Below are positions 39,329 to 63,248 of a DNA stretch of 64,000 bases, piece after piece. Under the pieces are notes generated by a model. It searched no databases, was not told where the DNA came from, and saw only the letters and a list, made by a program, of their open reading frames with translations. The stretch covers positions 95,032 through 159,031 of the forward strand of contig MGPQ01000005.1 of NCBI GenBank assembly GCA_001797465.1, read 5' to 3'. A program made the position numbers and the translations under genes. Positions within the stretch are counted from its first letter, which is position 1; every line of letters begins with the position of its first letter. The stretch comes from Deltaproteobacteria bacterium GWB2_55_19 (GTDB taxonomy: Bacteria > Desulfobacterota > GWC2-55-46).

Positions 39329-39336
39329 CTCTTTTA

Positions 39337-41526: not shown

Positions 41527-41541
41527 CCCATTACCTCCTTT

Positions 41542-41957: not shown

Positions 41958-42041
41958 TGAAATAAAAAAAGCCACAGGAAAAGTTCCCGTGGCTTTATGT
42001 TCGTAAGACCTACTGAAAAAATTACATGTCTATATATTACC
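41958..42041 (-). repeat. conserved intergenic element, copy 8
   Basis: It has the hairpin GCCACAGGAAAAGTTCCCGTGGC plus the core. A possible 31-codon hydrophobic small ORF (TTG start after AAGGAGG) follows on the minus strand at about 41917-41822. Confidence 0.75.
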
Positions 42042-42046
42042 TGCTT

Positions 42047-43222: not shown

Positions 43223-43376
43223 TTCTTTGTCTCCCTCATAAGTTTTTCCCATGCCACCGCAAGCCTCTTGGAATGAACCGATGAGACCCAAAACCATATA
43301 ATACTGCGGTCTGCACCAGGATCTGAGAATCGGGATAGTACGCTCCTGAGTTTTTTTAGCATAACGGCTCCATACG

Positions 43377-44270: not shown

Positions 44271-44368
44271 CCTCTCCTCCTTTCAAAACAAAGCCCCGGA
44301 AACCATGAGGAACCAAAAGGTTCAAGGGTCTTCCAGGGCTGTAAGTTAAAAATCGGGTGATGCGTCCT

Positions 44369-45016
44369 TTACTCGTCGACCAGATGTATCGGCGCTCCTT
44401 CTGCAAGGGCTTTCTTCACCCTGTCGTCCGCCATTTTGTTTTCAGGCATGACATACTCGAAATGGGCAAAGGGCAGCCAGAGAAAAGTTCCAGCCGAATA
44501 CTTGGGCCGGTAATTGTTCACCATCCGCGGCACGTTATAGGTGGTAGATCCGATTTTTCTAAAGTATTTTTCGTCCTGAAGTTCAGCATCGACAAAGAAG
44601 TAAAGGCTTCGTAAGCAGAACTCCCCACCCTTTTCGTGCGTGGGTATGTCTTTCGGACACCGGTCGACAGACTCCTTTGTTTCATCGACAAGAGCTTTTG
44701 GATGTATGAAAAACATCCTCGACTGAAACGGTGTCACTCCGGACCAGTCGAAATTGACAGGTACCCTTTTAGATACCCCGAGATACCTCGTCTCCTCGAT
44801 GAAATCCGGACAGAAGGGATAGAACTCCTGCCCGACCCAGAATATGAGGTCCTTGACGCCGTTTCTCTCCTGCACCAGAGGGGCCCTGAAAGGGTCGCCG
44901 TTATACGGCAGCGGCGGGTCAATCAGAAAATGCTCGATAGGCTCGCCGTATGGAGAAGTGCCACAACAGGCATATAGACCTCCTTTTACCCTCTTTCCGC
45001 ATCCTCTCGTCGTCAT
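44369..45016 (-). CDS. hypothetical protein (215 aa)
   Basis: An ORF that overlaps the parB-like stop by 4 nt. Confidence 0.35.
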   Translation of the reverse strand: MTTRGCGKRVKGGLYACCGTSPYGEPIEHFLIDPPLPYNGDPFRAPLVQERNGVKDLIFWVGQEFYPFCPDFIEETRYLGVSKRVPVNFDWSGVTPFQSRMFFIHPKALVDETKESVDRCPKDIPTHEKGGEFCLRSLYFFVDAELQDEKYFRKIGSTTYNVPRMVNNYRPKYSAGTFLWLPFAHFEYVMPENKMADDRVKKALAEGAPIHLVDE

Positions 45017-45729
45017 GAATATTGGACCTCCTTTTTCAAAAATCCCCTTATTACGTCCACGGCGTTCTTTACATCTTCCGACAGTGGATGACCGGTTGAC
45101 ATCTTCGCGACCACCAACTCAAAGTCCAAAACCAGCTGATCGCACCCTTCCTCAACCGGAATCAGCGAGAGTAACGATGAAAGATTATGCTTAACCTTCC
45201 TCTGGTGCACATCCTCTTTCGTAATCTCTCCACTTAAGACGAGCTCCTTCTGAGCCTCTTTCGGCAACCGAGAAAGCTCAAAGGCGGTCGATGCGTTGAC
45301 CTCCCCCGATTTGACCTTGTTGAGCGCCTCTTTGCAAAGGTTCAACAGCCTAAAGTGCTTCTTGAGCTGCGTCCTGGAAAGACACAGCCTGTCGGCTATC
45401 TCCTGCTGCGTATAGCCGGACTTGATACAGAGCCTGATCTTATCGACTTCGTAAGCCAGGTTCGGTGACCGTTGAAGGTTCAACATCACCCCGAGAAGAT
45501 CAGAGTCATTCTCCCCTTCCTCCATGATTATCGCCGGGACCGTCTCAAGACCAAGATTCCTTGCGGCCTGGATCCTGCGGCGCCCATCGATAACCTCATA
45601 CCCATGCCCGTTTTTGTTGATCATTATTGGAACCCTGATACCGACTTCCTTGATGCTCTCTACAAACTTCGTTCCGGGCAGACACGTCTCAGTTCTTATG
45701 TCCACTACGTTGACTTCCCTTACCTCCAT
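45013..45729 (-). CDS. ParB/Spo0J-like nuclease-fold DNA-binding protein
   Basis: The ParB N-domain GRRR motif (VIDGRRRIQAA) is present. It is the first gene after the most upstream intergenic element copy. Confidence 0.7.
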   Translation of the reverse strand: MEVREVNVVDIRTETCLPGTKFVESIKEVGIRVPIMINKNGHGYEVIDGRRRIQAARNLGLETVPAIIMEEGENDSDLLGVMLNLQRSPNLAYEVDKIRLCIKSGYTQQEIADRLCLSRTQLKKHFRLLNLCKEALNKVKSGEVNASTAFELSRLPKEAQKELVLSGEITKEDVHQRKVKHNLSSLLSLIPVEEGCDQLVLDFELVVAKMSTGHPLSEDVKNAVDVIRGFLKKEVQYS

Positions 45730-45842: not shown

Positions 45843-46120
45843 CCTCCCACAGGCTTTTACTGCCTGAACAACTCTTAACAGGCTAAGCTGATCATCTACC
45901 TCTTAGGGCGCCTGAGCTGACTCCCTCTATCAACCTATCCTCATCGAAGAACAACATCCTTTTCCGTCTTTAGATGAAGAAATCTTAAACATTACCCCTC
46001 TACTGTCCAGTGCTCTATTTTCAGAAACGACTCATTCGGGATCTTTTTTATTAGATGGGGTTTTCAAAAATCAAGGATGTATGAGAAGCACAGATAGGGG
46101 GGTAGAATGCGATAAGGCAG

Positions 46121-46174
46121 TACGAAGGTTGGATCGGGAATTGTACTAATTTTGTATTAGAATTGGCGGCTGTC
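46121..46174 (+). repeat. direct repeat DR-L (left boundary of the metal-resistance island)
   Basis: GGGAATTGTACTAATTTTGTATTAGAATTGGCGGCTGTC is nearly identical to the copy at 58695-58734. Confidence 0.6.
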
Positions 46175-46184
46175 TTCTAACCGA

Positions 46185-46772
46185 TTATTTACTCAGGTAT
46201 TCTATCAGGCTGTCGAGGTCTTCATTGGAAATCTGCCATCTCGGCATCATGGTGGAAAGCTCGTTTCCCGCCGGGTCAATACCCGCGAGGACACAGCTTT
46301 TAAAGGAGGGTTCTGTAAAAGATGGGTGGGTTCTTCCATTCGCGTGGGTGTGCCCCTTCGGGTCAGTAAGGTAGCCCCATTTCAAAGGCGGCACATCCGT
46401 CATCATCATCATTTGCATGCCCTGGGCATTTGCCCCGTGGCACATCGCACACCCAACGCCCTGCATACCGTGGCTGTTTTTAATAAATTCACCTTTAGAA
46501 TTCACCCCTCTAAAAAATATCCTTTCTCCGTTCGAGGAGAATTCGGTTTTTCTGTCTATTTCTTCCATGTTCCTCATCATATCCCCCATCATGCCACCGC
46601 CTCGCATCATACCGTCCATCATACCCCTGCCTCCCATCATGCCGCTCATGCCGCGCCCCATGCCCATCGGCCCCTGGAATTGAAAGTCCCCGGCAGTATA
46701 ATAAAGAACAAGACCAGTCAGGCCTATTAAAACAAGGATTATGCCTATACAAAGCTGGATAAGCCGGCTCAT
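46185..46772 (-). CDS. Met-rich c-type cytochrome domain protein (metal-binding)
   Basis: An N-terminal TM is followed by MGMGRGMSGMMGGRGMMDGMM Met-rich repeats. A heme CxxCH motif (GCAMCHG) is present. Confidence 0.45.
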   Translation of the reverse strand: MSRLIQLCIGIILVLIGLTGLVLYYTAGDFQFQGPMGMGRGMSGMMGGRGMMDGMMRGGGMMGDMMRNMEEIDRKTEFSSNGERIFFRGVNSKGEFIKNSHGMQGVGCAMCHGANAQGMQMMMMTDVPPLKWGYLTDPKGHTHANGRTHPSFTEPSFKSCVLAGIDPAGNELSTMMPRWQISNEDLDSLIEYLSK

Positions 46773-46784
46773 GCCTCACCTCGC

Positions 46785-47003
46785 CTATTTACCGAGAATG
46801 TCCTTTTTCTTCTCATTGTACTCTTCCCTTGTTATCTCGCCTCTGGCATATCTTTCATTCAGAAGGTCAAGGGCGCTTTTTTCAACCCCCTCGCCTCCGG
46901 CCTTCCTTCCAGCAAGGGCACGGACTATGAGAAAAATCCCCAGGATGATGAGTACCCAGAAGCCAAGCCAGATAATCCAGTGATATCCGTACATGTATGG
47001 CAT
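46785..47003 (-). CDS. SHOCT-domain small membrane protein
   Basis: A TM helix is followed by the C-terminal LLNERYARGEITREEYNEKKKDIL SHOCT pattern. Confidence 0.5.
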   Translation of the reverse strand: MPYMYGYHWIIWLGFWVLIILGIFLIVRALAGRKAGGEGVEKSALDLLNERYARGEITREEYNEKKKDILGK

Positions 47004-47187
47004 ATTTTATCTCTCCATTTTCATCGGATAAAAATTCTCTTAAAAAAACCGATTGAATATACTTCTATTTTGGCGAGCGGTTTCCAAGAAAAGTATAGCA
47101 GAATAAATTTACAAGCGGTCCGTCTACAAAAACCCCGGGGTGATGAAAACATGCCTTAAAACTATTGTATCTTATAAATCGATTACT

Positions 47188-49281
47188 TTATCTTAGCAAT
47201 CTCAAGCCATTTATAATCACAAGAATCCCTCCGACCTCATTTATAAGTATTCCAGGCACAAGCCCTATCCACCCTATAAGGGCCATAGGAACCAGAAAGG
47301 CGATGACGGCAAGAGACAGGAAGATATTCTGTTTAATGTTATTCACCGCCCTCCTGCTCAAACCAAGGACATAGGGAATCTTGGAAAGTTCATCAGACAT
47401 GAGGACTACATCTCCTGTCTCTATCGCTACATCGGTTCCTGCGGCGCCCATTGCGATACCGACATCTGATGCAACCATGGCAGGGGCGTCATTTACTCCG
47501 TCGCCCACCATGCCCACAATCCCGTACTCTTTTTTAAGAGCATTTATGGCATTAACCTTTTCTTCCGGCAGAAGCTCTGCCATATACTTATCGACCCCTG
47601 CTTCTTTCGATATGGCGCTTGCAACCTGTTCATTATCGCCAGTCAACATTATTACGGTCTTGATTCCAAAGTCTTTCAGCTTCTTCAAGGTCTCCTTTGC
47701 CTCAGGCCTGAGTTCGTCTCTGACGGCGATGATCCCCATCAGACACTTATCTCCGATCAAGACTATGACCGTCTTACCCTGCCTCTCAAGATTCCTTATC
47801 TTTTCCTCAGCATCCGGCGTAAGGACTTCAAGCCTTGCACAGAGGTTTAAGCTTCCTATGCAGTAGGTTTCAGCATTTATAATTGCCTTTGCCCCCATAC
47901 CGGGGATCGCTTCGAACCAGTCCAATTCGCTGGCAGAGACGCCTTTCTCTTTTGCCTTTTTCATAATTGCGTCGGCAAGAACATGTTCTGAACGGCTCTC
48001 GATGGAAGATGCGATTCTCAGGACCGATTCGTCAGTCAGTTCCCCAAAAGTTATAACATCAGTTACGAGAGGTCTGCCCAAGGTCAACGAGCCTGTCTTA
48101 TCAAAGGCTATGGCTTTCAGATGAGATGCGGCTTCCAGATGCGTTCCTCCCTTTATCAGAACGCCGTGTCTTGCGGCATTAGCCACAGCCGCCACGACTG
48201 ATACGGGTATTGAAAGGGCTATGCCGCATGAGCAGGATACGACGAGCACAACAAGCCCCCTGTAGAACCATTCGCTGAATCCGCCGAAGAAGACAGTCGG
48301 CATGATTATTACCATAAGAGCGAGGGCAAACATCGAAGGGGTGTAGTATCTCCCGAAAGTCTCCCCGAACCTCTGGTAGCTCGATTTTCTGGTCTCCGCC
48401 TCTTCGACATAGTGGATTATCTTTCCCAGTGTCGTATCCTCAAAAGGTCTTGTCACCAAAACATCAATGGTTCCCCTCTGATTTATGGTTCCGGCGAAGA
48501 CTTCATCACCGGGCCCCTTTGAAACCGGAATGGACTCTCCCGTTATAGAAGCCTGGTCCAACGATGATGTGCCTTTTACGACCCTACCGTCCAGAGGTAA
48601 TTTTTCACCCGGCTTGATGATGATAGTATCCCCGACCTTCACTTCCTCGACTTTAATGACGAGTTCTTCGCCATTCTTCCTTACGAGGGCTTCTTTTGGG
48701 GCGAGTTCCATTAGCGCTCTTACCGCGCCTCTTACCCTGTCGGAGGCATAGGCCTCAAGGACGTCACCAAGTGAATAGATAAGTACAAGGAGAGCCGCTT
48801 CCTCCCAGAGCCCGAGCCCTATTGCGCCAATTGCCCCTGCCACCATCAGAGTCCTTATATTCGGTCTCAGGGTCTTCAGGGCGGCAAGGCCCATCTTCGC
48901 AGGATAATATCCGCCTATAATGGTAGCGATACCATACAGGAAACTTGCGTTCCTGTGCGAGATGCCGAATACATGCTCGGACAAAAAGGCAATCAAGATA
49001 GAAAATCCGCAGGCCGAAAGGGTCAGGATTCTGGGCTCCTTCCACCATACGGAAGCCTTTCTAACCTCTTCCTTCTTTCTGGCCTTCAACCCTGTTCCGG
49101 CTATGGCCTTTATGATATTCTGCTCCGATGTAAGAGCATCATCGTAATCGGCCTTCAGGGTTCTGGCCATAATGTTGATCTCTAAAGAGGATATTCCTTT
49201 AAGCCCTTCCATCGCAGACCTGATGAGCTTGGCCTCATCCTCGCAGTCGAGACCTTCTATATATAAAGTCATCTTAACCAT
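47188..49281 (-). CDS. heavy-metal translocating P1B-type ATPase (atypical metal-binding motifs)
   Basis: The P-type core is present: phosphorylation site FDKTGSLT (variant of DKTGTLT), GDGVNDAPAM, an HMA-like N-domain lacking CxxC, and a TM6 motif SCSC instead of CPC. Confidence 0.8.
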   Translation of the reverse strand: MVKMTLYIEGLDCEDEAKLIRSAMEGLKGISSLEINIMARTLKADYDDALTSEQNIIKAIAGTGLKARKKEEVRKASVWWKEPRILTLSACGFSILIAFLSEHVFGISHRNASFLYGIATIIGGYYPAKMGLAALKTLRPNIRTLMVAGAIGAIGLGLWEEAALLVLIYSLGDVLEAYASDRVRGAVRALMELAPKEALVRKNGEELVIKVEEVKVGDTIIIKPGEKLPLDGRVVKGTSSLDQASITGESIPVSKGPGDEVFAGTINQRGTIDVLVTRPFEDTTLGKIIHYVEEAETRKSSYQRFGETFGRYYTPSMFALALMVIIMPTVFFGGFSEWFYRGLVVLVVSCSCGIALSIPVSVVAAVANAARHGVLIKGGTHLEAASHLKAIAFDKTGSLTLGRPLVTDVITFGELTDESVLRIASSIESRSEHVLADAIMKKAKEKGVSASELDWFEAIPGMGAKAIINAETYCIGSLNLCARLEVLTPDAEEKIRNLERQGKTVIVLIGDKCLMGIIAVRDELRPEAKETLKKLKDFGIKTVIMLTGDNEQVASAISKEAGVDKYMAELLPEEKVNAINALKKEYGIVGMVGDGVNDAPAMVASDVGIAMGAAGTDVAIETGDVVLMSDELSKIPYVLGLSRRAVNNIKQNIFLSLAVIAFLVPMALIGWIGLVPGILINEVGGILVIINGLRLLR

Positions 49282-49515
49282 TTTACCCTCTTACCTAAAT
49301 TAATACCTTTTACAAAGATACGAATCCAATCCTGCCCGTCCTAAAAAAGACTTGACGGATGATATTGAATTTGATATTCAATATCATCATATATAAAACT
49401 TAACCTAAATAGATTCACCTTTTAAAAAAAATTATCTATAACGTCTCAATTTAAGTAAAGTTACGCACAGTCCATCCGATGATATTCTGTCTGAATACGG
49501 GAAAGGAGGCTGACC

Positions 49516-50322
49516 ATGTCACGTTTCAAGTATGTTCTATTTTCTGTCTTGATGTCTACGTTGCTTGTGTTCAATGCCGCTCAAGGGGCAAACAAAATCC
49601 AGGATAACTCGTTTCTGTTAGAAGAAGCCTACAATCAGGAAGACGGGGTTATCCAGCATATTTTTGCCTATCAGTATTTGAAAAATGCCAAGACATGGGG
49701 TTTGACATTCACACAGGAATGGCCGGTGCCCACCCAGACGCACCAGCTTTCCTACACGATCCCGTTCAACAGGGTCGATGACCCGGCATGGAAATCAGGG
49801 CTTGGCGACATAGCCTTGAACTACCGCTACCAGCTGGTATTCAAGGACAACCTGGCGATAGCACCGCGCATCTCGCTGATACTGCCTACAGGCGATTACA
49901 AAAAAGGACTCGGCACAGGCGCGGTGGGCTACCAGGCGAACCTGCCTGTGAGCGTCGATATTTCGGATAAATGGGTCATGCACTGGAATCTCGGAGCGAC
50001 TTATACTCCGGACAGCAAGGAACCCGGCGGGGCAAAGTCCGATACGGTAGGGACAAACTTCGGGGCAAGCGCCATCTACAGCATCACACAGAAATTCAAT
50101 TTCATGCTCGAGGCCGTATGGAATTCAACAGAAGCGGTCCAGGCTGACGCCTCCAAGGTCCGTGAAGACAGCTTCTTCATAAATCCAGGGTTCCGCGGCG
50201 CCATTGACTTCGCCTCAGGGCTGCAGGTCGTGCCTGGCATCTCATTCCCTTACGGCATAGGCCCTTCAAAAGGAGAATACGGCGCCCTCCTCTACCTTTC
50301 TTTCGAGCACCCTCTTTTCTAA
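49516..50322 (+). CDS. outer-membrane beta-barrel protein (MetA-pathway/transporter-like family)
   Basis: It has a signal peptide, alternating beta-strand pattern, and a C-terminal ..SFEHPLF ending in Phe. Confidence 0.4.
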   Translation: MSRFKYVLFSVLMSTLLVFNAAQGANKIQDNSFLLEEAYNQEDGVIQHIFAYQYLKNAKTWGLTFTQEWPVPTQTHQLSYTIPFNRVDDPAWKSGLGDIALNYRYQLVFKDNLAIAPRISLILPTGDYKKGLGTGAVGYQANLPVSVDISDKWVMHWNLGATYTPDSKEPGGAKSDTVGTNFGASAIYSITQKFNFMLEAVWNSTEAVQADASKVREDSFFINPGFRGAIDFASGLQVVPGISFPYGIGPSKGEYGALLYLSFEHPLF

Positions 50323-50376
50323 ACAGGCTCTGTTCTCAGCCCCCGTGCAAGGAGGGCTGAGAACAGCTGTTTGCTT
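50322..50376. terminator. bidirectional terminator hairpin between convergent genes
   Basis: A 13-bp stem CTGTTCTCAGCCC/GGGCTGAGAACAG is present. Confidence 0.45.
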
Positions 50377-50925
50377 CTACTCGCTTAAATGATTGCCCAC
50401 CTCAAAATTAGCGTCGAAGCCTATCACACCCTCCCTAAAACCCTTGGGACGGGCAAACTTACGAGGACCGTAAACCGGGTCGAATATGACCGTGTATACA
50501 CTGCCTCCGGCAAGCTCCCTCTTTGTAAACGCATGGCCGTCTTCCGATGCCAGAGCTATCTTATAGCTTCCGGGTTTGAGCCTGAAACGCTTGGCGAGCG
50601 CGTAGTGCGTCCCTTCTCCCCTCTCCTCAACGATATTAGACTCCGTTTCCTTAACGCCTTTTACCGTTTCTTTTACTTCCCTTCCGTCTACTTTCACGGT
50701 AAAAGTATACGGCTCTTCGGTCAGCCTCTTCTTTACATGCGCAATGACGACGAGATCGGTTTCTTCCTGAGACGGCGAGGTTATGTCTAAAGCCACGTCC
50801 TTAACCTCTACAGGGGCTAAAGCCTCCTCCGGGACATGCTTGTAGCACCCGGTAAAAACTGCGGCAACGGCCAACATGCCTAAAATTGACATTATCCTTT
50901 TCATTTTATAGAGCCTCCTCTCCAT
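50377..50925 (-). CDS. lipoprotein, unknown function
   Basis: The lipobox is FTGC. Confidence 0.4.
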   Translation of the reverse strand: MERRLYKMKRIMSILGMLAVAAVFTGCYKHVPEEALAPVEVKDVALDITSPSQEETDLVVIAHVKKRLTEEPYTFTVKVDGREVKETVKGVKETESNIVEERGEGTHYALAKRFRLKPGSYKIALASEDGHAFTKRELAGGSVYTVIFDPVYGPRKFARPKGFREGVIGFDANFEVGNHLSE

Positions 50926-51250
50926 GTTGAAATGTTTTTATTCTTACCGCCTTTTCTATATCGTAGACAAAGACCTTGCCGTCCCCGGGGTTTCCGGTGT
51001 GCGCGGCCTTCGCTATAGTCTCGACGACCAGGTCAACCATCTCGTCGTTGATCATTATCTCTATCCTCACCTTCGGGATATAATCGATAAGGTCCTCGAC
51101 GACCCGATGGGGGCCTTCTTTCCCCTTTTCCTTCCCGAACCCCCTGCAGTCAGATACCGTCATGCCTGGAAAACCCGGAATCTCCTGCAAAGCCCTGGTC
51201 ACGGAGGACAGCTTGAACTGCTGTATTATCGCCTTGACTTCCTTCATCAC
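50906..51250 (-). CDS. P-II (GlnB-like) family protein
   Basis: A 114-aa protein. MKEVKAIIQ...FPGMTVSDCRGFGKEKG shows a P-II fold pattern. Confidence 0.55.
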   Translation of the reverse strand: MMKEVKAIIQQFKLSSVTRALQEIPGFPGMTVSDCRGFGKEKGKEGPHRVVEDLIDYIPKVRIEIMINDEMVDLVVETIAKAAHTGNPGDGKVFVYDIEKAVRIKTFQHGEEAL

Positions 51251-51288
51251 ACTCCTCCTTGTTCAATAAATTGTTGAGCTAACAGCAG

Positions 51289-52347
51289 TCAGTGTTCATG
51301 TCTGTGGCACTCATCAGGCCAATGAACATGAATATGACTTACTTCATCATGGACATGTTCATGGGCATGCGGCTCATTAATGACTTTAAAATGTTCATGC
51401 AGATGATGCATGTCATCATGAACATGCAAATGATTATGTATTACCGGTTCATGATCGTGCAGATGAAAGTGTCCGCCGCGATTTATCAGCAGCCATAAGC
51501 CGCCTGCCATGAACGCCGTTGCAGGTAATATCACCCATCCAATCCGTTCCCCGAGTATGATGACCGATGCTATCACCCCGATATAAGGTGCAAAGCTGAA
51601 GAATACCCCTGTTCTGAAGGAACCCAGTCCTTTAAGAGCCTTGATGAAGAATACCATGCTGATGCCGTAGCTAAACGCGCCCAGCAACAGGGCAAATACG
51701 AGAGTAACGCCCAGCGGTATCTCCACTCCAAGTATCAGGGCTGCCGAAATGGAAAATGTCCCCGCGACCAAGCCTTTGATCCGGGCTATTTGCACTGGGT
51801 CTTTATCCGCAATTTTACCGGTCAGATTATTGTCCATCCCCCAGCACGCCATTGCTAGGGCGATTAATGACGGGCCAGCGATATTGAACTCCCCCAGGTC
51901 AGGCTGCCATGTTAAAAACATGCCCGCCAATGTCATACACGCCAAAGCGGACCACAAGCGCCTTCCCGCAGACTCCTTGAAAAGAAAAACGGCGATGACG
52001 GCTGTCGCGATCCCTTCCAGATTAAGCAGTAATGACGCGGCCATGCCTGAAACGAAGGTCAAACCCTTTATCAGGCTTATTGGCGCTATTATCCCGCCAG
52101 TAAGTATTGAACCGGCAAGCCATGGCAGGTCTTTTTTTCCCAGCGGCTCCGCAATTTTTTCAGGTTCAATCCTTTTCCCAGCGGAATACAGAGAAAGACC
52201 TATAAACGCACCCAGATAGAGGACTCCCGCCAAGACCAGCGGCGGCATTCCCCCGACAAGCAGCTTGGCAAGAGGCGGGCTGATGCCGAATAAGAAGGCG
52301 GATATCGCTATGTATAACAACGGTGTTTTCAGCGCAAGACCTTTCAT
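51289..52347 (-). CDS. DMT/EamA-like transporter with His-rich C-terminal tail
   Basis: It has about 10 TM helices. The C-terminal tail is HDHEPVIHNHLHVHDDMHHLHEHF...HAHEHVHDEVSHIHVH. Confidence 0.5.
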   Translation of the reverse strand: MKGLALKTPLLYIAISAFLFGISPPLAKLLVGGMPPLVLAGVLYLGAFIGLSLYSAGKRIEPEKIAEPLGKKDLPWLAGSILTGGIIAPISLIKGLTFVSGMAASLLLNLEGIATAVIAVFLFKESAGRRLWSALACMTLAGMFLTWQPDLGEFNIAGPSLIALAMACWGMDNNLTGKIADKDPVQIARIKGLVAGTFSISAALILGVEIPLGVTLVFALLLGAFSYGISMVFFIKALKGLGSFRTGVFFSFAPYIGVIASVIILGERIGWVILPATAFMAGGLWLLINRGGHFHLHDHEPVIHNHLHVHDDMHHLHEHFKVINEPHAHEHVHDEVSHIHVHWPDECHRHEH

Positions 52348-52419
52348 AACGGCAATTCCCTGTCTATTATTTCAAAGCCCTGTGAATAGCCTTGTACTTA
52401 TCCGAAACATGTGGCAGCC

Positions 52420-55400
52420 CTAAAACTCCACCTTCTTCTCCTCAAACCACCTGTAAAGCGTCGGGAGCACCAGGAGCGTCAATATGGTCGATGTAATAAG
52501 CCCGCCCACGACCACAGTCGCGAGCGGCTTTTGTATCTCCGAGCCGGGGCCTGTGGCGAAGAGCATGGGAATTAGGCCGAGGATGGCCACGAGCGCGGTC
52601 ATAAGGACAGGCCTGAGCCTCCTTTCGCACCCTGTTGAAATGGCCTCTTCAAGGCCGAGACCTTCCTCACGAAGCTTGTTTATGTAAGATACGAGCACTA
52701 CGCCGTTCAAGACAGCCACACCGAAAAGCGCGATAAATCCGACCGAAGCCGGCACGCTCAGGTACTGGCCAGAAATCAGGAGCCCGAAAATCCCGCCTAT
52801 GAGCGCGAAGGGGAGGTTCATGATTATAAGGGCCGCGTACTTCAGCGAATTGAAGGCGGAGAAAAGCAGGAAAAATATGAGCGCTATCGTCAGAGGCACG
52901 ATTATTGAAAGCCTCTTCATGGCTCTCTGCTGGTTCTCAAAGGCCCCGCCCCATGCGATGTAGTACCCGGATGGCAGTTTCACTTCTCTGGCGATCACTT
53001 CCTCCGCCTCTTTTACGAAACCTCCTATATCCCTGCCCTCAACGTTTGACTCAATGACGATCCTCCTTTTGGAGTTCTCCCTGCTTATCTGAACGGGACC
53101 CTCTGACATATATACCCGCGCGAGCATCGAGAGCGGGATGTTGGCGCCGTTTGAGGCATTCACAAAGATATTTCCAATCGCCTCAACGGAGTTCCTTTTT
53201 CCCTCCGGGAAACGGAGGAGGACGGAGAACCTTTTGTCTCCCTCAAAGACGTCCGTTGCCACCTTACCCCCGATCGCCGTCTCTATGATCTCCTGGATAT
53301 CGGCTATGTTGATGCCGTATCGGGCGATCTTGCGCCTGTCTATGTCGACCGTTATATAAGGCTGGCCTGCCGTCTGCTCCACCCTCAGATCGGTTACGCC
53401 TTTTACCGAAGACATTGCCTTTGCGATGCTATCCGCCTTTTCATTCAGGACGTCCATATCGTCGCCGAACAACTTCACGGCAACCTGTGATTTCACGCCT
53501 GAGATGAGCTCATCGACCTTAAGCGCGATCGGCTGGGTAATGTTAAGGCCAATTCCGGGTATCTTTTCGAGCTCTTCCCTTATCTTTTCTACAAGTTCTT
53601 CTCTTGTCGAAGCACTCGTCCATTCATCTCTCGGCTTGAGGATTATTATGGGGTCGCTTATATTGGGGCCCATCGGATCGGTGGCTATCTCCGCCGCTCC
53701 TATCTTTGAGACGACCGTCACTACCTCAGGAAACTTCAAAAGGGCCTGCTGGACCTTGTTTTCTATCTCGACCGATTCGGGAAGCGAGATGCTCGGGAGC
53801 CTTATGACCTGAGTGGTTAAGGAGCCTTCATCGAGTGTCGGCATAAACTCGGTGCCGAGAAGAGGGAAAATAGCAAGGCTCGCGATGAGCATCGCTACCG
53901 CGCCAGCCAGCACGACAAACTTTTTTCTCAATGCCCAGCCTAGAACCGGCATATAGAACCTTTTAATCCATCTTACGATAAAGACATCTTCCTCCTGCCC
54001 GCCTTTTAAAAACAGCGAGGCAAGCACCGGGGAAAGGGTCAATGAGAGAATCAGCGAGACAAAAAGAGCTATGCTTATGGTATATGCCATCGGGCTGAAC
54101 ATCTTTCCTTCCATGCCCTCAAGGGTAAAGAGCGGCAGGAAGACGATAATGATTATTACTATGCCGAAGGTTATCGGCCTTCCCACCTCTTTTGCAGATT
54201 CAAGGATCTTATGGAGGCGCCCTTCTTTATGGTGCTCTTTTTCAGAAAGGTGCCTGAAGATATTCTCGATCATTACGACCGAACCATCCACCATCATGCC
54301 TATGGCTATGGCCAACCCCCCGAGGGACATGAGGTTTGCGGACATGCCCATCCACTGCATGGCTATAAATGTAGTGAGAGCGGCTACAGGCAGCGTTGCC
54401 GCCACTATCAGGGCGCTTCTTATATTGCCCAGGAAGAGGAAGAGGATGACAACCACAAGGATCCCGCCCTCTTCGAGAGCCTTTGTAATAGTGCCGATGC
54501 AGGCGTTTACAAGTTCGGTCCTGTCATAAAAGGGCTTTATCTTTACTCCGTCAGGCAGGATGTTGCCGGCGTTGATCTCCTCGACCTTTTTCTTTACCCC
54601 CGCAACGACCTCCTTGCCGCTTCCGCCCTTTATCATCATCACTATACCGGCGACGGCCTCGCCCTTCCCGTCCTTCACGATCGCGCCGTGCCTTGTCTCA
54701 GGGCCGAAAGTTATGCTTGCGACGTCTTTAACATAAACGGGCGTCCCGCCATACGACTTGATAACGATGTCTTCTATGTCCTTTAACGACTGGACCAGGC
54801 CGACGCCCCTTATGATATAACGCTCGGAGGCGTGTTCGAGTATGTCGCCGCCCGCGTTTGAGTTGTTTTCCGCGACCGCTTCGAACACCTCATTGAGCGT
54901 AAGGTTGAATTTGCGCAGTCTGTCCGGCTCGATCAGCACCTGGTACTGTTTGACATGGCCGCCGAAGGCGTTTACGTCCGTGACCCCTGAGACTGTCTTT
55001 AGTATAGGCCGTACGATCCAGTCCTGGATCGTCCTTAACTCCATCAGCCCGGCGATATCGTTTTTCGAGCCCTCAGGCCTCTCAAGGGTATACTGGTATA
55101 TCTCGCCGAGTCCTGTTGAAACTGGACCCATTACGGGTTCTACCCCTGCCGGCAGCTTTTCCTTGGCTTCAATAAGCCGTTCCAATATCAACTGCCTGGC
55201 GAAATAGATGTCAACATCGTCCTCAAAGACGACCGTCACCATCGACAGGCCGAACTTGGAAAGAGACCTCAACTCCTCCATCTTCGGGAGCCCCGTCATC
55301 TGCACCTCTACCGGATAGGTGATGAGCTTTTCCACCTCAACAGGGGAGCGCCCCGGGGCCTCCGTTATTATCTGGACCTGAACGTTCGTGACGTCCGGAA

Positions 55401-55515
55401 AGGCATCTATCGGAAGCTTATTAAAAGCATAGACCCCGGCGCCGACCAGCAGAAAAACCCCGATTATAACTAAAAGCCTCTGCTTTAAAGCAAAGGCAAT
55501 AAGCCTCTCTATCAT
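52420..55515 (-). CDS. CusA/CzcA-family heavy-metal efflux RND transporter
   Basis: A 1031-aa protein with 12 TM helices and large periplasmic loops, typical of the HME-RND family. Confidence 0.9.
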   Translation of the reverse strand: MIERLIAFALKQRLLVIIGVFLLVGAGVYAFNKLPIDAFPDVTNVQVQIITEAPGRSPVEVEKLITYPVEVQMTGLPKMEELRSLSKFGLSMVTVVFEDDVDIYFARQLILERLIEAKEKLPAGVEPVMGPVSTGLGEIYQYTLERPEGSKNDIAGLMELRTIQDWIVRPILKTVSGVTDVNAFGGHVKQYQVLIEPDRLRKFNLTLNEVFEAVAENNSNAGGDILEHASERYIIRGVGLVQSLKDIEDIVIKSYGGTPVYVKDVASITFGPETRHGAIVKDGKGEAVAGIVMMIKGGSGKEVVAGVKKKVEEINAGNILPDGVKIKPFYDRTELVNACIGTITKALEEGGILVVVILFLFLGNIRSALIVAATLPVAALTTFIAMQWMGMSANLMSLGGLAIAIGMMVDGSVVMIENIFRHLSEKEHHKEGRLHKILESAKEVGRPITFGIVIIIIVFLPLFTLEGMEGKMFSPMAYTISIALFVSLILSLTLSPVLASLFLKGGQEEDVFIVRWIKRFYMPVLGWALRKKFVVLAGAVAMLIASLAIFPLLGTEFMPTLDEGSLTTQVIRLPSISLPESVEIENKVQQALLKFPEVVTVVSKIGAAEIATDPMGPNISDPIIILKPRDEWTSASTREELVEKIREELEKIPGIGLNITQPIALKVDELISGVKSQVAVKLFGDDMDVLNEKADSIAKAMSSVKGVTDLRVEQTAGQPYITVDIDRRKIARYGINIADIQEIIETAIGGKVATDVFEGDKRFSVLLRFPEGKRNSVEAIGNIFVNASNGANIPLSMLARVYMSEGPVQISRENSKRRIVIESNVEGRDIGGFVKEAEEVIAREVKLPSGYYIAWGGAFENQQRAMKRLSIIVPLTIALIFFLLFSAFNSLKYAALIIMNLPFALIGGIFGLLISGQYLSVPASVGFIALFGVAVLNGVVLVSYINKLREEGLGLEEAISTGCERRLRPVLMTALVAILGLIPMLFATGPGSEIQKPLATVVVGGLITSTILTLLVLPTLYRWFEEKKVEF

Positions 55516-55567
55516 TAAACTGCTCCTCCGATTTCAATTACGGATTTCGGGCATACCCCTGCGCCCG

Positions 55568-56782
55568 TCAATGCCCGTGACCTTCCATCTCTCCCTTTTG
55601 CCCTTCGGATTTCAAGGTGAAAGCGCCTTTCACGACTACCCTCTCACCTTCATTGAGGCCTGAAAGTATCCTGTGGAAGCCATTGAACCTGGGGCCCACC
55701 TCCACAACACGCTTTTCAAACTCGTGCTCATCGATTGCCACGAATACGATAGATTTATCGCCATCGCGCTGCAGAGCGCTTTCAGGCACCGCGAGCGCCT
55801 TTTCCTTTTCAGAGGTCGATATCCTGACGGTCGCGAACATCTCTGGCTTAAGCGCGCCTTTTGCGTTATCGACCTCAGCCCTGACCTTTACGCCCCTTGT
55901 CTCAGGGTCGATCACCTCGGATATGTAGCTGAGCTTTCCCTTGAAAACTTTTTCAGGGTAGGCTGATGCAACTATCGCAACGGACTGTCCCTTTTTTACC
56001 TTGGGGACATCGGCCTCAGGAACGTCTGCGATGACCCAGAGATTAGAGAGGTTCGCCACCGTAAAAAGAGGCTTTATTGGCTCCACTACCTCGCCGAGCG
56101 TAAGATGCCTTTCTATGACCGCGCCTGAGATCGGCGAATATATGGCGACCCTCGAATTGATGGTATGTTCCTTGCCTATCGCTGACAATTCCTTTTCAGT
56201 CATCCCAAGCAGATGAAGCTTGTCTTCCGCCGCCTTCAATTCCGTTTTCGCCGAAAGGTACTCACCCTCGCGCCTCTGGAATTCACCTGTTGATATGACC
56301 TTGCCCTCAAGGACTATCTTTGCCCGCTCGAATGACTTCTCCGCTATCTCGTAGGCCGTTTTTGCCTTGAGGTACTGGCTCTGCGCCTCTCCAAGCTCGG
56401 GACTGTCGATTATCGCGAGCGGCTGTCCCTTTTTCACATAGTCACCGGCATTCGCGAACACCTCGACCGCCCTCCCAGGTATCCTCGGGCCGACATGGGC
56501 AAGCGCTGTCTCATTCACGGATACCTTTCCGGTAAAGGAATACTCCACACTGACGGGCCTCAAGGAGAGTGCCTCGGTTTTTATGCCAGCGCTCTCAACA
56601 GCTTCGGGGCTCAGGGCTATGACACCTGGACGCTCGCCTTCATGCTTGCCAGCTTCCTCGGCATGGCTATCCCCTTGCCCGGCTTCCTTTTTCGGTTCCT
56701 CTGATTTTCCGCATCCTAAAAAGAAAACCAAAGCGAACAGGACAAATAAAGTTTTCCTGAAAACCATTAAAATCTCCTCCAT
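55568..56782 (-). CDS. efflux RND periplasmic adaptor (CusB/CzcB-like), lipoprotein
   Basis: It has the lipobox FLGCG and membrane-fusion-protein beta-barrel/lipoyl pattern. His/Met-rich ends are present. The start is possibly at M6. Confidence 0.85.
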   Translation of the reverse strand: MEEILMVFRKTLFVLFALVFFLGCGKSEEPKKEAGQGDSHAEEAGKHEGERPGVIALSPEAVESAGIKTEALSLRPVSVEYSFTGKVSVNETALAHVGPRIPGRAVEVFANAGDYVKKGQPLAIIDSPELGEAQSQYLKAKTAYEIAEKSFERAKIVLEGKVISTGEFQRREGEYLSAKTELKAAEDKLHLLGMTEKELSAIGKEHTINSRVAIYSPISGAVIERHLTLGEVVEPIKPLFTVANLSNLWVIADVPEADVPKVKKGQSVAIVASAYPEKVFKGKLSYISEVIDPETRGVKVRAEVDNAKGALKPEMFATVRISTSEKEKALAVPESALQRDGDKSIVFVAIDEHEFEKRVVEVGPRFNGFHRILSGLNEGERVVVKGAFTLKSEGQKGEMEGHGH

Positions 56783-56796
56783 ACTTTCATTTCGTT

Positions 56797-58041
56797 TTAT
56801 TGCGGCAGGCCGCCTGCCACCCTCTCAAGCGCCGCCAGGGACGATTCAAGCTCGAACAGCGATTGGTAATATTCGACAAAGGTCGACTGATATACTCTCT
56901 GGGTATCAAGGTACTCGAGAAGCCCGGACTCACCGTGCCTGTATGAGAACTCCGCTATCCTTAGCGCCTCCTGAGCCTCGTTCAGGAGCCCCTTGTCAAA
57001 GACCTCTATCTGCTCAATGGCAGTCGTATAGTTCTGGTATTCTTCGGTTATGGACTTTGCCAGTTCCACCTTTGTCCTGTAGACTTCAGCTTCTGCCCTT
57101 GTTTTCCCGGCGGAAGCCGCCGCTATCTCCCCTTTCCTCTGGTACCAGAAAGGGATGGGTACGGACAGGCCGACCCCGTATGAGTCCTTGTCAAACTCTT
57201 TGCTGAAAAAGCCTCTCAGAGTCACATCAGGGAAGACTGATGCTCGCTCCGTTTCGAGCGAATAGCCCTTTGCCTCGGCGTCCTTTTTCGCCTTCAAGAC
57301 AAGCGGGTGCTTCTCCAGAGCGACCGACAAAAGCGCCTGAAGCTCGTACTTCTTTTCAGGCGACCTGAACACCCCCTCCACATCAAAATCGCCTTTAATG
57401 GCATTGCCTAAAAGCCCGTTCAAAACCGCCTTTGAAACGGCGATTGCGTTACCAGCCCTCTTCAATTCCTTGTCCGCCCTGAGCGCCTCAACCTTTGCCT
57501 TTATCAACTCGAACTCAGGCGCCTCCCCTGCCTTTACCTTGAGTTCTACGGTCTTGAGGAGTTCACCGGTTATCCTTGAATTCTCCCCGGCTGTCTCCAG
57601 AATCTTTTTGTCCGCCAAAAGCCTGAAAAAAGCCCTTTTGACCTCAGCGCGTATCTGGAGGCGGAAATCGTCCAGTTCATTTTCAGTGGCTTCAACGGAG
57701 GCCTTCGCGGCCTGTTTTCTGAAATGCCTCTTGGAAGGCCACTCAATCGCCTGGCCGATGCCAAGGGAGTACTCGCCTTTCGATTCCCCTGTCTCGATGG
57801 ATTTGCCTCTGCCCACCTCGAATTCGACTTCAGGGTTGGGATAGGCACCAGCCGAGACGGCCTCTCCCCTGCTCGCCTCGATGTTGGCCCTGAAGACCGC
57901 GGCTGCCGGGTTCGCTTCAGTTGCCATGGAAAGCAGGGCGTCCAGAGTAAAGACTTTCTTTTCCTCAGCGGTCACAAACCCGGGAATTAGAAAAATCATG
58001 AAAAAAAAGACAACAGAAACGGATGGTCTAAATCCTTTCAA
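56797..58041 (-). CDS. TolC-family outer-membrane efflux protein (CusC/CzcC-like)
   Basis: A 414-aa protein with a signal peptide and two OEP repeats. Confidence 0.8.
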   Translation of the reverse strand: MKGFRPSVSVVFFFMIFLIPGFVTAEEKKVFTLDALLSMATEANPAAAVFRANIEASRGEAVSAGAYPNPEVEFEVGRGKSIETGESKGEYSLGIGQAIEWPSKRHFRKQAAKASVEATENELDDFRLQIRAEVKRAFFRLLADKKILETAGENSRITGELLKTVELKVKAGEAPEFELIKAKVEALRADKELKRAGNAIAVSKAVLNGLLGNAIKGDFDVEGVFRSPEKKYELQALLSVALEKHPLVLKAKKDAEAKGYSLETERASVFPDVTLRGFFSKEFDKDSYGVGLSVPIPFWYQRKGEIAAASAGKTRAEAEVYRTKVELAKSITEEYQNYTTAIEQIEVFDKGLLNEAQEALRIAEFSYRHGESGLLEYLDTQRVYQSTFVEYYQSLFELESSLAALERVAGGLPQ

Positions 58042-58174
58042 CGGACAAGCCTCCCTGCGTTTTTTAGATACAGAATTTTCGCCGTAAAAAGATTACGGAA
58101 ATACAACAGGAGATAGAGCATACGGCTTGGCCTTCAGGCCAGGCCTGGCTTATCGCTGTGTATCAGAGTGGGTT

Positions 58175-58537
58175 TTAGATAAGGACTTTGGGTGGCTGAA
58201 AGATGTCTGCAGATATTTTCTTGAGAGATAAATCGGCGGCGGCAAATAAGGATAAGGAGATTGTTTGAACAGAGCTTACTTCAGTGGATGGGGTGTTCGT
58301 GAAGCTCAGGTGGCAGGGGCAATGGCACTCGTCGAGAATGCCTGAAGGGGAATAAGAGCGCTTTCCATCATCAAGGTCAGCAGCTACAAACTGTACACTG
58401 CCCTGTATTCCAGGGACGCTCCGAGGCAAATCTTCTCCAACACAAGCAAGGTCAGTCACCTGCAATGTGAAGACGATCAGGAGGAGAAAACCTATGAATT
58501 TACCGATACGGGTCATTTTTAGAACTGTCCTATACAT
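58175..58537 (-). CDS. small secreted/membrane protein with CHCPCH motif (possible metal-binding accessory)
   Basis: A 120-aa protein with an N-terminal TM. It lies upstream of the RND operon. Confidence 0.3.
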   Translation of the reverse strand: MYRTVLKMTRIGKFIGFLLLIVFTLQVTDLACVGEDLPRSVPGIQGSVQFVAADLDDGKRSYSPSGILDECHCPCHLSFTNTPSTEVSSVQTISLSLFAAADLSLKKISADIFQPPKVLI

Positions 58538-58682
58538 TCCAATATACCTTTTTCTCAGGAGCCGTCAACAAAATTCTTGAATAACCTGTTATTGACAAGA
58601 GCGGCGTTTTATCTGTGAGGACTTGACAAAATTATTGAAAACATGTGATAAATTACAAATGTACTTAAAAAAGCAGTGAGGG

Positions 58683-58734
58683 AAGTAATTGAAGAATGAG
58701 GTTTGGGAAATTGTACTAATTTTGTATTCGAATT
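58683..58734 (+). repeat. direct repeat DR-R (right boundary of the metal-resistance island)
   Basis: GGGAAATTGTACTAATTTTGTATTCGAATTGGCGGCAGTC matches the copy at 46136-46174 at 37 of 39 positions. Confidence 0.6.
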
Positions 58735-58868
58735 GGCGGCAGTCCTAAGACTCCAGAGACTCTAAAGACTACAAAGAATGCCACCAAACCCCCTATTATA
58801 TAAGGCAAAACGGGAAATCAAGCCGAATATCAGGGAGTTGCGTTTTTGGGCTTAATTGCCCTCAAAAT

Positions 58869-58915
<47 letters not shown>

Positions 58916-59091
58916 ATTTTTTCTCTTTAAAGTTAACGAGTTATTCTCAACCCATTTCTTCCCGCGCGGGATTTTTTATGCCGTGCACTTTCCCTGTCAG
59001 GCAACTTGCTCTCACCTATTGCTATTGAGCAGCCTAATTCGAAGCCTTTCTATGTCGTTCTCGAACACAATATTTTTCCTCTCGAAAACTA

Positions 59092-59532
59092 TTAGACCAT
59101 CTTCGCCAAAAACAATACACAAACGCCGAGAACCAGATTAAGCCTTACCAGAGCAAGCGAAAGCTTCTGAAGGGATGCTTTCTTTGCCGGCACTGACTTT
59201 GCTATCTTCGGGGCCAGAAGAAGGCCTCTGTAAAAATGGATAGCTATCATAGTTACGGCCAGCGCCGACTTAAAATAAAATGGCGCACTCATATAAGAGC
59301 CTTTGTGCAGGAACGATAAAAAGACCCCAGTTATGACGAGAAGCAAAATACTGTAATTCGCGAAAGGCGTAAATCTTTTTGAGATCACACCCATGATTTT
59401 ACCTGCTTCTGTTCCCATGACCTCTTTTGAAGCCGGGATAGCTACAAACAGGATAAATATTATCCCGCCTATCCAGAGAACTGCCGAAACAAGATGCAGA
59501 AAAACGATGGAATTCAAAGCAAAATCAAACAT
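59092..59532 (-). CDS. CopD-family-like membrane protein
   Basis: It has 4 TM helices. HLVSAVLWIGG resembles the CopD H..A..W.GG motif. Confidence 0.4.
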   Translation of the reverse strand: MFDFALNSIVFLHLVSAVLWIGGIIFILFVAIPASKEVMGTEAGKIMGVISKRFTPFANYSILLLVITGVFLSFLHKGSYMSAPFYFKSALAVTMIAIHFYRGLLLAPKIAKSVPAKKASLQKLSLALVRLNLVLGVCVLFLAKMV

Positions 59533-59633
59533 AACTCCCTCCTGTTTTTTTTTGGCCGCCCCTGGTGGAAGCAGCCGTCAATTAATTTAAGTATATAAGC
59601 ATACTCTTATATTCAAGGCCCAAAAAAAGACCG

Positions 59634-59933
59634 CTACTTCTTCCCGGCGGCATTCCCGCTTTGACAGCCGCAGGAACATAATCTGTTCAGGCGCTGCCTG
59701 CACATCTCCAGGGCCTCCCTGTCGAGCGAATAATAGACCCAGTAGCCCCTGCGCTCATCGTTTACGAGGCCGGAAGACTTAAGCACCCTGAGGTGCTGCG
59801 AAGCGGCGGACTGAGATATGCCGATGGCCTCGGCAATGGCATTAACGCTCATAGGCTCCTTTTTGAGGAGCTCGATGATGTCGACCCTTCTGTCTACCGA
59901 CAGTATCTTGAATAAGTAGGCTGCGTTTTTCAT
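59634..59933 (-). CDS. ArsR/SmtB-family metalloregulator
   Basis: The HTH IAEAIGISQSAASQHLRVLKSSGLV and C-terminal Cys pairs are present. Confidence 0.7.
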   Translation of the reverse strand: MKNAAYLFKILSVDRRVDIIELLKKEPMSVNAIAEAIGISQSAASQHLRVLKSSGLVNDERRGYWVYYSLDREALEMCRQRLNRLCSCGCQSGNAAGKK

Positions 59934-60111
59934 AAGTATTTAAGCAGCTACTAATATACTCCGACCAGTCCTGCTTGTCAATCGCTGTCTTGACATTTCC
60001 ATGTGAATACATTATTTTATTAATTAAGCAATTCCTTAAATAAGGCATCGGCTTTAGAATCTGTAAAACAATAAGCGCATCATAACGGCTCAACACAATT
60101 AATCAGGACGC

Positions 60112-60444
60112 GTGAGCATGATATCCAAAGAGATCTACGAGATACACGCAAGCATCTGCCAGTGCCTGGCGAACCCAAAGCGCCTCGAGATCATAAATAC
60201 CCTGAGGGAAGACGAGCTGTCGGCAACCGAGATCGCCGAAAAACTTGGCATCTCCAACGCTAACGCATCCCAGCACCTCGCCATAATGCGCAACAAAGGG
60301 ATACTCAAAAGCAGGCGCGAAGGGGTCAGCATCCACTATTCCCTTGCCAACCCCAAGGTCATCACGGCGTGCGACATAATGAGGGAGGTGCTTTTCGAAT
60401 ACCTCAACGAAAAGCAGTCGCTTACAAAAAAGGTGAAGATCTGA
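60112..60444 (+). CDS. ArsR/SmtB-family transcriptional regulator
   Basis: The HTH SATEIAEKLGISNANASQHLAIMRNKGIL is present. Confidence 0.7.
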   Translation: MSMISKEIYEIHASICQCLANPKRLEIINTLREDELSATEIAEKLGISNANASQHLAIMRNKGILKSRREGVSIHYSLANPKVITACDIMREVLFEYLNEKQSLTKKVKI

Positions 60445-61205: not shown

Positions 61206-61264
61206 GCCTTCCGTAACGCGCTTGATTTAACCTGACCTGAAAGTGAACCGCCTCAGGAGGAGCT

Positions 61265-62518: not shown

Positions 62519-62521
62519 AGC

Positions 62522-63211: not shown

Positions 63212-63248
63212 GCCTGAATCAAATAAAATCCATTTATCGAGAGCCGTC

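Follow-up and report, generated by a model that had tools for sequence, protein, structure and literature searches.

Integration into tRNA genes leaves recognisable traces: displaced tRNA-gene (tDNA) fragments mark the ends of genomic islands, attP sites centred on the anticodon form a major class, and a tDNA fragment with its start in the anticodon loop classically identifies the distal end of a tyrosine-integrase island (PMC4383910). For integrative and conjugative elements (ICEs), accretion, cis-mobilizable elements (CIMEs) and gene capture have been described, as have decayed, integrase-less members of accretion arrays (PMC5704250). The locus considered here belongs to Deltaproteobacteria bacterium GWB2_55_19 (contig MGPQ01000005.1) and lies in a stretch of 64 kb that was analysed as a whole and is called the window; all positions are window coordinates. 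It holds a block of metal-resistance genes (block M) between two copies (R1 and R2) of a short direct repeat (R), a third copy of which (R3) lies further right. In the preferred reading, given a probability of roughly 0.55, block M is cargo of an F-type ICE that would be integrated in a tRNA-Leu gene within a tandem array, and sits between R1, a relic, and R2, which is part of the element's working tail.

A repeat search of the window returned GGGAATTGTACTAATTTTGTATTAGAATTGGCGGCTGTC at R1 and again, in direct orientation, at R2 (feature coordinates are collected in Table 1). The copies are identical at 36 of 39 nt (92%), with mismatches at 46138, 46159 and 46171 and a longest perfect run of 20 nt; when a 2-nt gap is allowed, local alignment pairs about 45 columns (46136-46181 against 58706-58749). 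Such a pair is far beyond chance: the 32-nt core AATTGTACTAATTTTGTATTMGAATTGGCGGC, which contains one ambiguous base, is present at exactly two places in the window, and two occurrences were seen in 0 of 100 shuffles. An original prediction for this stretch had reported near-identical direct repeats of ~50 bp with extra similarity about 15 nt upstream. The direct repeat is real, but the 80-nt left flanks of the two copies score at the shuffled mean (z ~-0.4), so its length is ~40 bp and not ~50 bp; a longer repeat, with weaker similarity over ~60 nt to the left, was rejected on the same ground, and copy 2, which had been placed at 58695-58734, lies ~10 nt further right, at 58706-58744. The predicted internal palindrome, CTAAT-TTTGT-ATTAG, is perfect in copy 1 and imperfect in copy 2, which reads ATTCG. 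R is AT-rich and has two phased TTGTAY half-sites 11 bp apart as well as small dyads, which flank a 5-7-nt spacer (TACTAAT-TTTGT-ATTAGAA). R1 lies 10 nt past the stop codon of the cytochrome c gene, the leftmost gene of block M.

Comparative loci (L-numbered contigs) were collected with the ParB-like gene to the left of R1 as an anchor, and genome and metagenome collections, which are incomplete, were scanned with the repeat as a pattern, a search that retrieved few loci. The window is 99.9% identical to a contig of Deltaproteobacteria bacterium GWA2_55_10 (MGPL01000020.1), and a 168.7-kb JGI contig (Ga0209317_1000049) matches it at 100% identity across 20.7 kb. Since both repeat junctions recur in independent assemblies, more than 20 in all (copy 1 in L001-L010 and L042-L051, copy 2 in L020-L025), an assembly artefact is ruled out as the source of the structure. 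Scans of viral contigs with the repeat core, the arm motif and ParB as queries gave chance matches or nothing.

A related element with an empty site carrying a single repeat copy, for which the original prediction had proposed a search, was found on two independent contigs. L013 and L014, whose ParB homologue is 89% identical, have one copy of R and no metal cluster; their order is parB, a flank of ~400 bp, R, the arm sequence that follows R2 in the window, and a tRNA-Leu half. Because they join the ParB-side flank of R1 to the right flank of R2, the metal cluster is an indel exactly between the repeats. R1 and the single R of L013 share a distinctive GGCTGTC allele; as the arm after R2 is L013-like too, the exchange point would coincide with the right edge of R or lie immediately past it. 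Both empty-site contigs are short-k-mer assemblies, from different runs, and diverge from the window by ~9% throughout. Other relatives are arranged differently. Every contig that encodes the identical ParB carries the metal block. In a more distant ICE of the L011 type (ParB 66% identical) the block adjoins parB, and R1 and the adjacent flank of ~290 bp are missing; its cargo is 80-82% and its backbone 68-77% identical to the window at the nucleotide level, and this similar divergence of cargo and backbone favours an old association and a loss in the L013 lineage. A relative with a 98% identical ParB (L126) has a helix-turn-helix (HTH) gene, an MNT/HepT toxin-antitoxin pair and a truncated tail of the tRNA-Ala type (described below) upstream of parB. 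Taken together, the comparisons portray the right end of the element as a hotspot of plasticity, moulded by deletions as well as captures.

What follows R2 gives the repeat its context. In order, R (~40 bp), 9-bp AGACTC repeats, a palindrome with a hairpin, and a tRNA-Leu 3' half form a tail of ~200-210 bp in total. The tRNA-Leu half begins 116 nt right of copy 2 and has the anticodon loop CTCAAAA (anticodon 58863-58865), a long variable arm (class II), the T arm GTGGG-TTCGATT-CCCAC, the acceptor 3' strand, A73 and CCA. ARAGORN found no complete tRNA or tmRNA in the window or in the ~30 loci examined, and no tRNA gene is present in the window or in the 10 kb further left; once an artificial 5' half is added, the program calls tRNA-Leu(caa), which serves as a consistency check only. 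An Rfam scan matched the T arm of the tmRNA model at the tRNA-Leu half (E = 4.3e-4). An RNA gene over the repeat and tail was rejected, the Rfam matches being of T-arm size only with no family beyond the T arm. Compared with the homologous halves in L013, L018 and L019, the half shows compensatory changes in the T stem and the variable arm.

The tail recurs as a unit. The arm is present after copy 2, after copy 3, after the single copy of L013/L014 and after the copies in L018 and L016, the tRNA-Leu half being truncated at copy 3 and missing in L016. An nhmmer profile of the tail matches the other tails over their full length and copy 1 over profile positions 3-44 only. R, arm and tRNA-Leu half stand complete behind four unrelated left neighbours (the ParB flank, orf120, orf413 and an MmeI-type restriction-modification gene), whose flanks are statistically unrelated in a shuffle test. 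L018 and the window strain align contiguously at 82% over orf413, R and arm while their right neighbours differ; therefore, the tail is the end of the module to its left. Over the first 95 nt after R2 (58745-58839) the arm is 93.7-95.8% identical to that of L013/L014 against 80-88% to other tails; in the remaining 77 nt, mostly tRNA half, L013 and L018 agree at 96% and the window and L013 at 84%. A mosaic break of this kind near the anticodon loop is expected of an attR that joins an element-derived arm to a host-derived tRNA half.

Read in this way, the tRNA-Leu half is the recognisable att core and probably marks the right end of the conjugative element, the integrase crossover presumably falling in the tRNA-Leu anticodon loop. 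R would then be element DNA that lies 116-155 nt inside the right end rather than the att core; it may serve as a protein-binding arm site, and the AGACTC repeats look like arm-type integrase sites. Copy 1 appears to be a solitary relic and copy 2 part of a working arm. The original prediction took the repeats for attL/attR-like sites of an inserted island. They do seem att-derived, and R does bound the indel; with the tRNA-Leu half as att core and R at the distal edge of the arm, however, R1 and R2 are not the core of an autonomous island.

All genes from cytochrome c through orf120 lie between R1 and R2, so the copies bracket the metal genes exactly as had been predicted. The prediction that no recombinase lies between the copies held as well: a domain scan of all block M genes returned no recombinase domain, and the intergenic gaps (at most ~230 bp) are too short to hide a recombinase gene. 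A look-up of the SHOCT protein for other contexts of the block returned only the same ParB-linked arrangement. A sister copy that lacks R (L034-L041 type) is 95.7% identical at the nucleotide level; homology stops at 58609, 97 bp before R2, and past the break the sequence consists of insertion sequence (IS) and toxin-antitoxin remnants. One contig, L037, has at 868-915 (- strand) GTTGTACTTGAGACTCCAGTTCGATTTCAACCTCTGGCACCA, which mixes short pieces resembling the repeat, the AGACTC motif, the T loop and the Leu acceptor end, and may be a heavily deleted tail remnant near an R-less copy of the metal block. The orf120 product and its homologues (P0016-P0026) share a CHCPCH motif and belong to no Pfam family; in every relative the gene immediately precedes cusC, and so it does in a closed 2.99-Mb genome (L032/L033), where the operon is chromosomal.

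To the right of the tRNA-Leu half the array continues with module B, which beyond the window also encodes MMPL, a TP_0789-like protein and orf413. In the near-identical strain, a third direct copy of R with its arm and a truncated tRNA-Leu half follows 9,040 bp right of R2, at a window-equivalent position of ~67.75 kb; this part of the array lies at 15228-15693 in L021 (window-equivalent ~67.75-68.2 kb) and at 15708-16208 in L023-L025. The truncated half is followed by the 17-nt repeat core and a diverged homologous tail (nhmmer E ~5e-6) that ends in the 3' half of a tRNA-Ala(GGC). The core, GTACTAATTTTGTATTA, is kept between tails of the tRNA-Leu and tRNA-Ala types, which have otherwise diverged. 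The end of the diverged tail was also considered as tmRNA and is better read as the tRNA-Ala(GGC) half. Right after the CCA of this half, co-occurring strains differ, with a tyrosine-integrase fragment in some and unrelated genes in others; used as a query, the integrase fragment beside the tRNA-Ala half retrieved only short partial integrases. Neighbouring modules thus end in one and the same directly oriented att-site sequence, as they do in an accretion array, and the genes of block M and module B have no recombinase or transfer domains, as is the case in CIME-like modules. The locus is best described as a tandem array of putative tRNA-targeted modules (Leu and Ala) with captured cargo. In L013, the module after the tRNA-Leu half (274-3760) encodes an HTH protein, Multi_ubiq, a ThiF/DUF6791 E1-like protein and BubE; it looks like a ubiquitin-like defence system and is closed by a tail of the tRNA-Ala type.

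The region left of R1 has the transfer genes together with the coupling protein that make up the conjugation module of an ICE: F-type TraL, TraE, TraK, TraB/TrbI, a TraG/TrwB-type coupling protein, a single-stranded DNA-binding protein (SSB) and ArdC. TraV, TraC and TraN sit left of the window, and the 10 kb there still carry F-type transfer genes. Other backbone genes encode a ribonucleotide reductase, an SNF2 helicase, a primase, a Gp3-like factor, a beta clamp, an IstB-like ATPase, a PRTRC ubiquitin-like cassette, an SMC-like ATPase, and ArdC-like and ParB-like proteins. Neither PF00589 nor another recombinase was found in the scanned open reading frames of the window, at least 10 kb of the element, and probably far more, lying to its left. 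The HTH_3 remnant beside R1 has stop codons and an internal deletion and is intact upstream of parB in L126, which shows that this end of the element has been shaped by deletions.

Table 1. Features of the locus in window coordinates; genes of block M are listed below its row.
Feature	Position	Strand	Basis or remark
Conjugative element backbone	1..45729	-	Domain scans; continues >10 kb left of the window
ParB-like gene, first backbone gene left of R1	45013..45729	-	Domain annotation
HTH_3 regulator pseudogene (3' remnant), located between R1 and the ParB promoter	45895..46048	-	tblastn
Repeat copy 1 (R1)	46136..46174	+	Solitary; corresponds to the initial ~40 nt of the att-arm tail, with remaining arm and tRNA half missing
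Metal-resistance cargo block M (11 genes)	46185..58537	mostly -	Domain annotation; missing from L013/L014
Cytochrome c	46185-46772	-	
SHOCT protein	46785-47003	-	
P1B ATPase	47188-49281	-	
Outer-membrane barrel	49516-50322	+	
orf182	50377-50925	-	
P-II	50906-51250	-	
EamA transporter	51289-52347	-	
CusA	52420-55515	-	
CusB	55568-56782	-	
CusC	56797-58041	-	
orf120	58175-58537	-	Small secreted protein
Upstream region of orf120	58538..58705	-	Best promoter-like site 58568->58541
Repeat copy 2 (R2)	58706..58744	+	Outer block of the intact att-arm tail; full-length tail profile match 58705-58901
Tandem 9-bp AGACTC-type repeats, three to four	58743-58777	+	TRF
Remainder of the putative attR arm	58745..58860	+	AGACTC-type repeats, conserved block, near-palindrome, hairpin (TRF, motif map, alignment)
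Near-palindrome AAGCCGAATATCAGGGAG	58820-58837	+	Motif map of the arm
Hairpin GGGCTTAATTGCCC	58848-58861	+	Motif map of the arm
Displaced tRNA-Leu(CAA) 3' half, anticodon loop to A73-CCA	58861..58915	+	Unique in the window
Start of module B	58916..64000		CopD-like, ArsR, second ArsR-type regulator, orf239/278, SQR-like oxidoreductase, methyltransferase

Further observations concern the backbone itself. A complete PRTRC-type cassette (34671-39278, - strand) encodes a ThiF-like E1, JAB, an E2-like protein, prokaryotic ubiquitin-LPD28 and PRTRC_E, and adjoins genes for the SMC-like ATPase, a metallophosphatase, ArdC and ParB. A cobalamin riboswitch (6758-6943, + strand, 121.7 bits) precedes a CbiM cobalt-uptake gene (7174-7830, + strand), an unusual cargo position between transfer and replication-type genes. 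At least seven operons of the element are preceded by a conserved cassette of ~90-110 nt on the minus strand (45755-45843, 41941-42041, 39215-39327, 34593-34682, 33373-33458, 27198-27285 and 22583-22674; partial copies on the same strand at 20137-20170 and 19278-19325). It is built of GGTAATATATAGACATGTAGTTTTTTCAGTAGG, a strong hairpin with a U-tract (AAAGCCACGGGAA..TTCCTGTGGCTTTTTTT) and a ribosome-binding site; it looks like a shared promoter with a leader terminator and suggests antitermination-type control across the element. The dispersed cassette breaks the assemblies of the relatives L124 and L125, and contigs with more distant ParB relatives (P0007, P0010) end in this promoter repeat as well, ~90 bp ahead of parB.

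In the proposed mechanism, the window would be the right-hand ~59 kb of a large F-type ICE in the tRNA-Leu(CAA) gene of a deltaproteobacterium from Rifle groundwater, with attR formed by the conserved tail: R, the arm-type-like AGACTC repeats, the palindrome and hairpin, and the displaced 3' half of the host tRNA-Leu. Since R2 lies directly against the remaining arm, the tail would be intact, and the cargo would travel with the ICE rather than as an autonomous island. The cargo-present and cargo-free states would differ by one recombination event between two copies of R. The block may have been captured at the decay-prone right end during tandem accretion and fusion of tRNA-Leu modules that share the tail, and the cargo-free relative may later have arisen from recombination of R1 with R2, either of the RecA type on repeats that were then identical or assisted by an R-binding protein. 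Which way the indel ran and which enzyme acted are inferences, a loss of the block in L013 being slightly favoured over an independent gain. The data fit recombination at R that inserted or deleted a block with its own copy, accretion of two elements with this tail and a later deletion down to a stump of 39 nt, and combinations of these histories.

Several observations weigh against cargo capture by the ICE as described. The left end of the element, where an intact tRNA-Leu and an integrase would be expected, falls beyond the window, and integration at tRNA-Leu is deduced from one junction only. Block M is the only block flanked by R alone, and the presence of the metal block beside ParB in the L011-type ICE, which has neither R1 nor the ~290-bp flank, points to a history other than a simple single event. 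The tRNA-Leu half of L013 is followed by a module with an Ala-type tail, so that accretion at one tRNA gene needs further deletions. With a perfect run of 20 nt, R1 and R2 are now a poor RecA substrate; the empty-site contigs come from short-k-mer assemblies; and in several contexts homology breaks off sharply at the left border of R, which also fits a dedicated crossover site.

The last point leads to an alternative, in essence the main reading of the original prediction, in which block M is a separate integrative, cis- or trans-mobilisable island, R1 and R2 are its attL and attR, and R is crossed over by a dedicated site-specific recombinase encoded elsewhere, perhaps by the ICE. Its own copy of R would let such an island enter the ICE arm while restoring the arm, much as some islands restore a tRNA gene. 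In its favour, the repeats are the exact limits of the indel, and an empty site with one copy exists. Tail homology begins sharply at the left edge of R behind the four unrelated neighbours, and in two genomes it does so at the R-like core within the tail of the tRNA-Ala type; the small dyads of R around a 5-7-nt spacer and the retention of the 17-nt core between two diverged tail types would suit a crossover site, and R1 matches the R of L013 while the arm after R2 matches the arm of L013, as if exchange had occurred at the right edge of R. Set against this, the block contains no recombinase and the window yielded none; no other block was seen with R alone at its ends, the neighbouring module being bounded by tRNA halves; R is elsewhere always physically linked to the arm, its right boundary being set only by the point at which R1 is truncated; and the junction in L126 falls inside the tail, not at R. 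No circular junction of the metal block was present among the few repeat-scan matches, all of which were junctions of chromosomal type, although this absence is weak evidence given the incomplete collections. A separate island is thus doubtful. Quite unlikely is the more specific idea that R is a dedicated secondary recombination site in the att arm, at which cargo blocks with their own R are inserted and removed and the arm is regenerated. If true, it would amount to a cassette-exchange system for ICE cargo, with a logic like that of tRNA-targeting islands that restore their target gene, and would explain why R is the best-conserved block between tails of the tRNA-Leu and tRNA-Ala types. Other kinds of site were tried and rejected: the best ungapped match of R to the E. 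coli dif site (13/28) equals the shuffled mean of 13.1, which dismisses a dif/Xer site; an integron cassette array would have an IntI integrase, attI and imperfect attC palindromes around single-gene cassettes, yet an integrase is missing and the locus shows near-identical 40-mers with 5-bp dyads only and "cassettes" of 9-12.6 kb with several operons; and a transposon with a target-site duplication finds no transposase domain in the block and no inverted repeats at its ends. A duplication of 39 nt also far exceeds the usual target-site duplications.

Accretion followed by illegitimate deletion, with no recombination at R, would account for the same layout: of two tandem tRNA-Leu elements, the left one was a cargo-free ICE and the right one a metal-bearing element with its own tail, and a deletion that began 39 nt into the ICE tail took away its arm, its tRNA half and the left portion of the metal-bearing neighbour, so that R1 is a stump; the cargo-free relative would never have been fused. 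The locus is demonstrably a tandem array of integrase-less modules that share a tail, other scars are present (the truncated HTH gene, the truncated Leu half beside the Ala-type tail, the truncated tails of L126 and L016), and accretion followed by decay is a documented route to composite elements (PMC5704250). This history is nonetheless unlikely. The arm after R2 shares derived positions with that of L013/L014 (the 93.7-95.8% against 80-88% noted above) and looks like the ICE's own; one end of the deletion would have had to fall only 10 nt from where cytochrome c stops, and an entire second element would have had to vanish without trace; and the distant L011-type ICE also has a metal block next to ParB. 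It is highly improbable that the repeat is instead an operator or promoter element in two copies, bound by a metal-responsive or some other regulator and serving the cus operon from copy 2 and the parB operon from copy 1; the duplicated regulator-binding region suggested in the original prediction is likewise not supported. Read on the minus strand, each copy does precede a gene (orf120 at a distance of 170 bp, parB at 407 bp), R has the phased TTGTAY half-sites, and ArsR-type regulators are encoded nearby. Yet orf113-cusCBA homologues elsewhere (L029, L030-L033 and L034-L041) have no repeat, and those with 95.7%, 80% and 78% nucleotide identity lose homology to the window 97-190 bp before it; R3 and the copies in L018/L019 follow the 3' end of a plus-strand gene; and the repeat is constantly accompanied by the att arm and tRNA half. 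A search for promoters, terminators and sigma-54 sites over the repeat found none, and no promoter or terminator consensus covers it, orf120 having its best promoter-like site elsewhere and parB its own conserved promoter-hairpin cassette (the copy at 45755-45843).

If block M is cargo of the ICE, a Cu/Ag-type efflux and P1B-ATPase cluster of an aquifer deltaproteobacterium is placed inside a transferable conjugative element whose right end is defined to the nucleotide. Between relatives the resistance block is gained or lost as a unit. The tail signature of ~210 bp (repeat, AGACTC repeats and tRNA half) may delimit modules in such arrays of uncultured Deltaproteobacteria. The locus would be a new example of a well-known structure, a clean and unsurprising case of cargo capture in a tRNA-associated accretion array, and would matter more only if the repeat were an active exchange site.

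In lambda-type attP sites the core is flanked by long arms with arm-type Int sites and Xis/IHF sites. The tail resembles them in its arm of ~155 bp, its tandem short direct repeats (AGACTC, three times), its AT-rich distal block with phased half-sites and a crossover that would fall in a 7-nt loop flanked by stem sequences; the motifs, however, are unrelated to those of lambda, and the role of the distal block is inferred from sequence. SXT/R391 hotspots likewise have cargo at a fixed position between conserved backbone and element end, where relatives carry other cargo or none (block M, nothing, or HTH and toxin-antitoxin genes in the present case), but those of SXT are intergenic, inside the backbone, and not flanked by direct repeats of ~40 bp from an att arm. 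Another comparison is with tRNA-gene islands and ICEs with anticodon-centred attP sites (Islander class A; Williams 2002; PMC4383910). They share the displaced tRNA 3' fragment that starts in the anticodon loop, its orientation with the tRNA, the arm DNA of the element abutting it and the tandem arrays at one tDNA; at this locus, in contrast, the intact tRNA and the integrase would lie outside the window, and R is not a tDNA fragment but a block of ~40 bp on the distal side of the arm, positioned 116-155 nt away from the crossover. In the ICESt1/ICESt3-CIME family of Streptococcus thermophilus (Pavlovic 2004 and Bellanger 2011, reviewed in PMC5704250), full att cores bound each module, whereas the metal block has only an arm stump on one side and its mobilisation is putative. 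The likeness is otherwise extensive: in both, modules without integration or transfer genes keep their att sequences and stand in tandem beside a functional-looking ICE, and the composites capture neighbouring genes.

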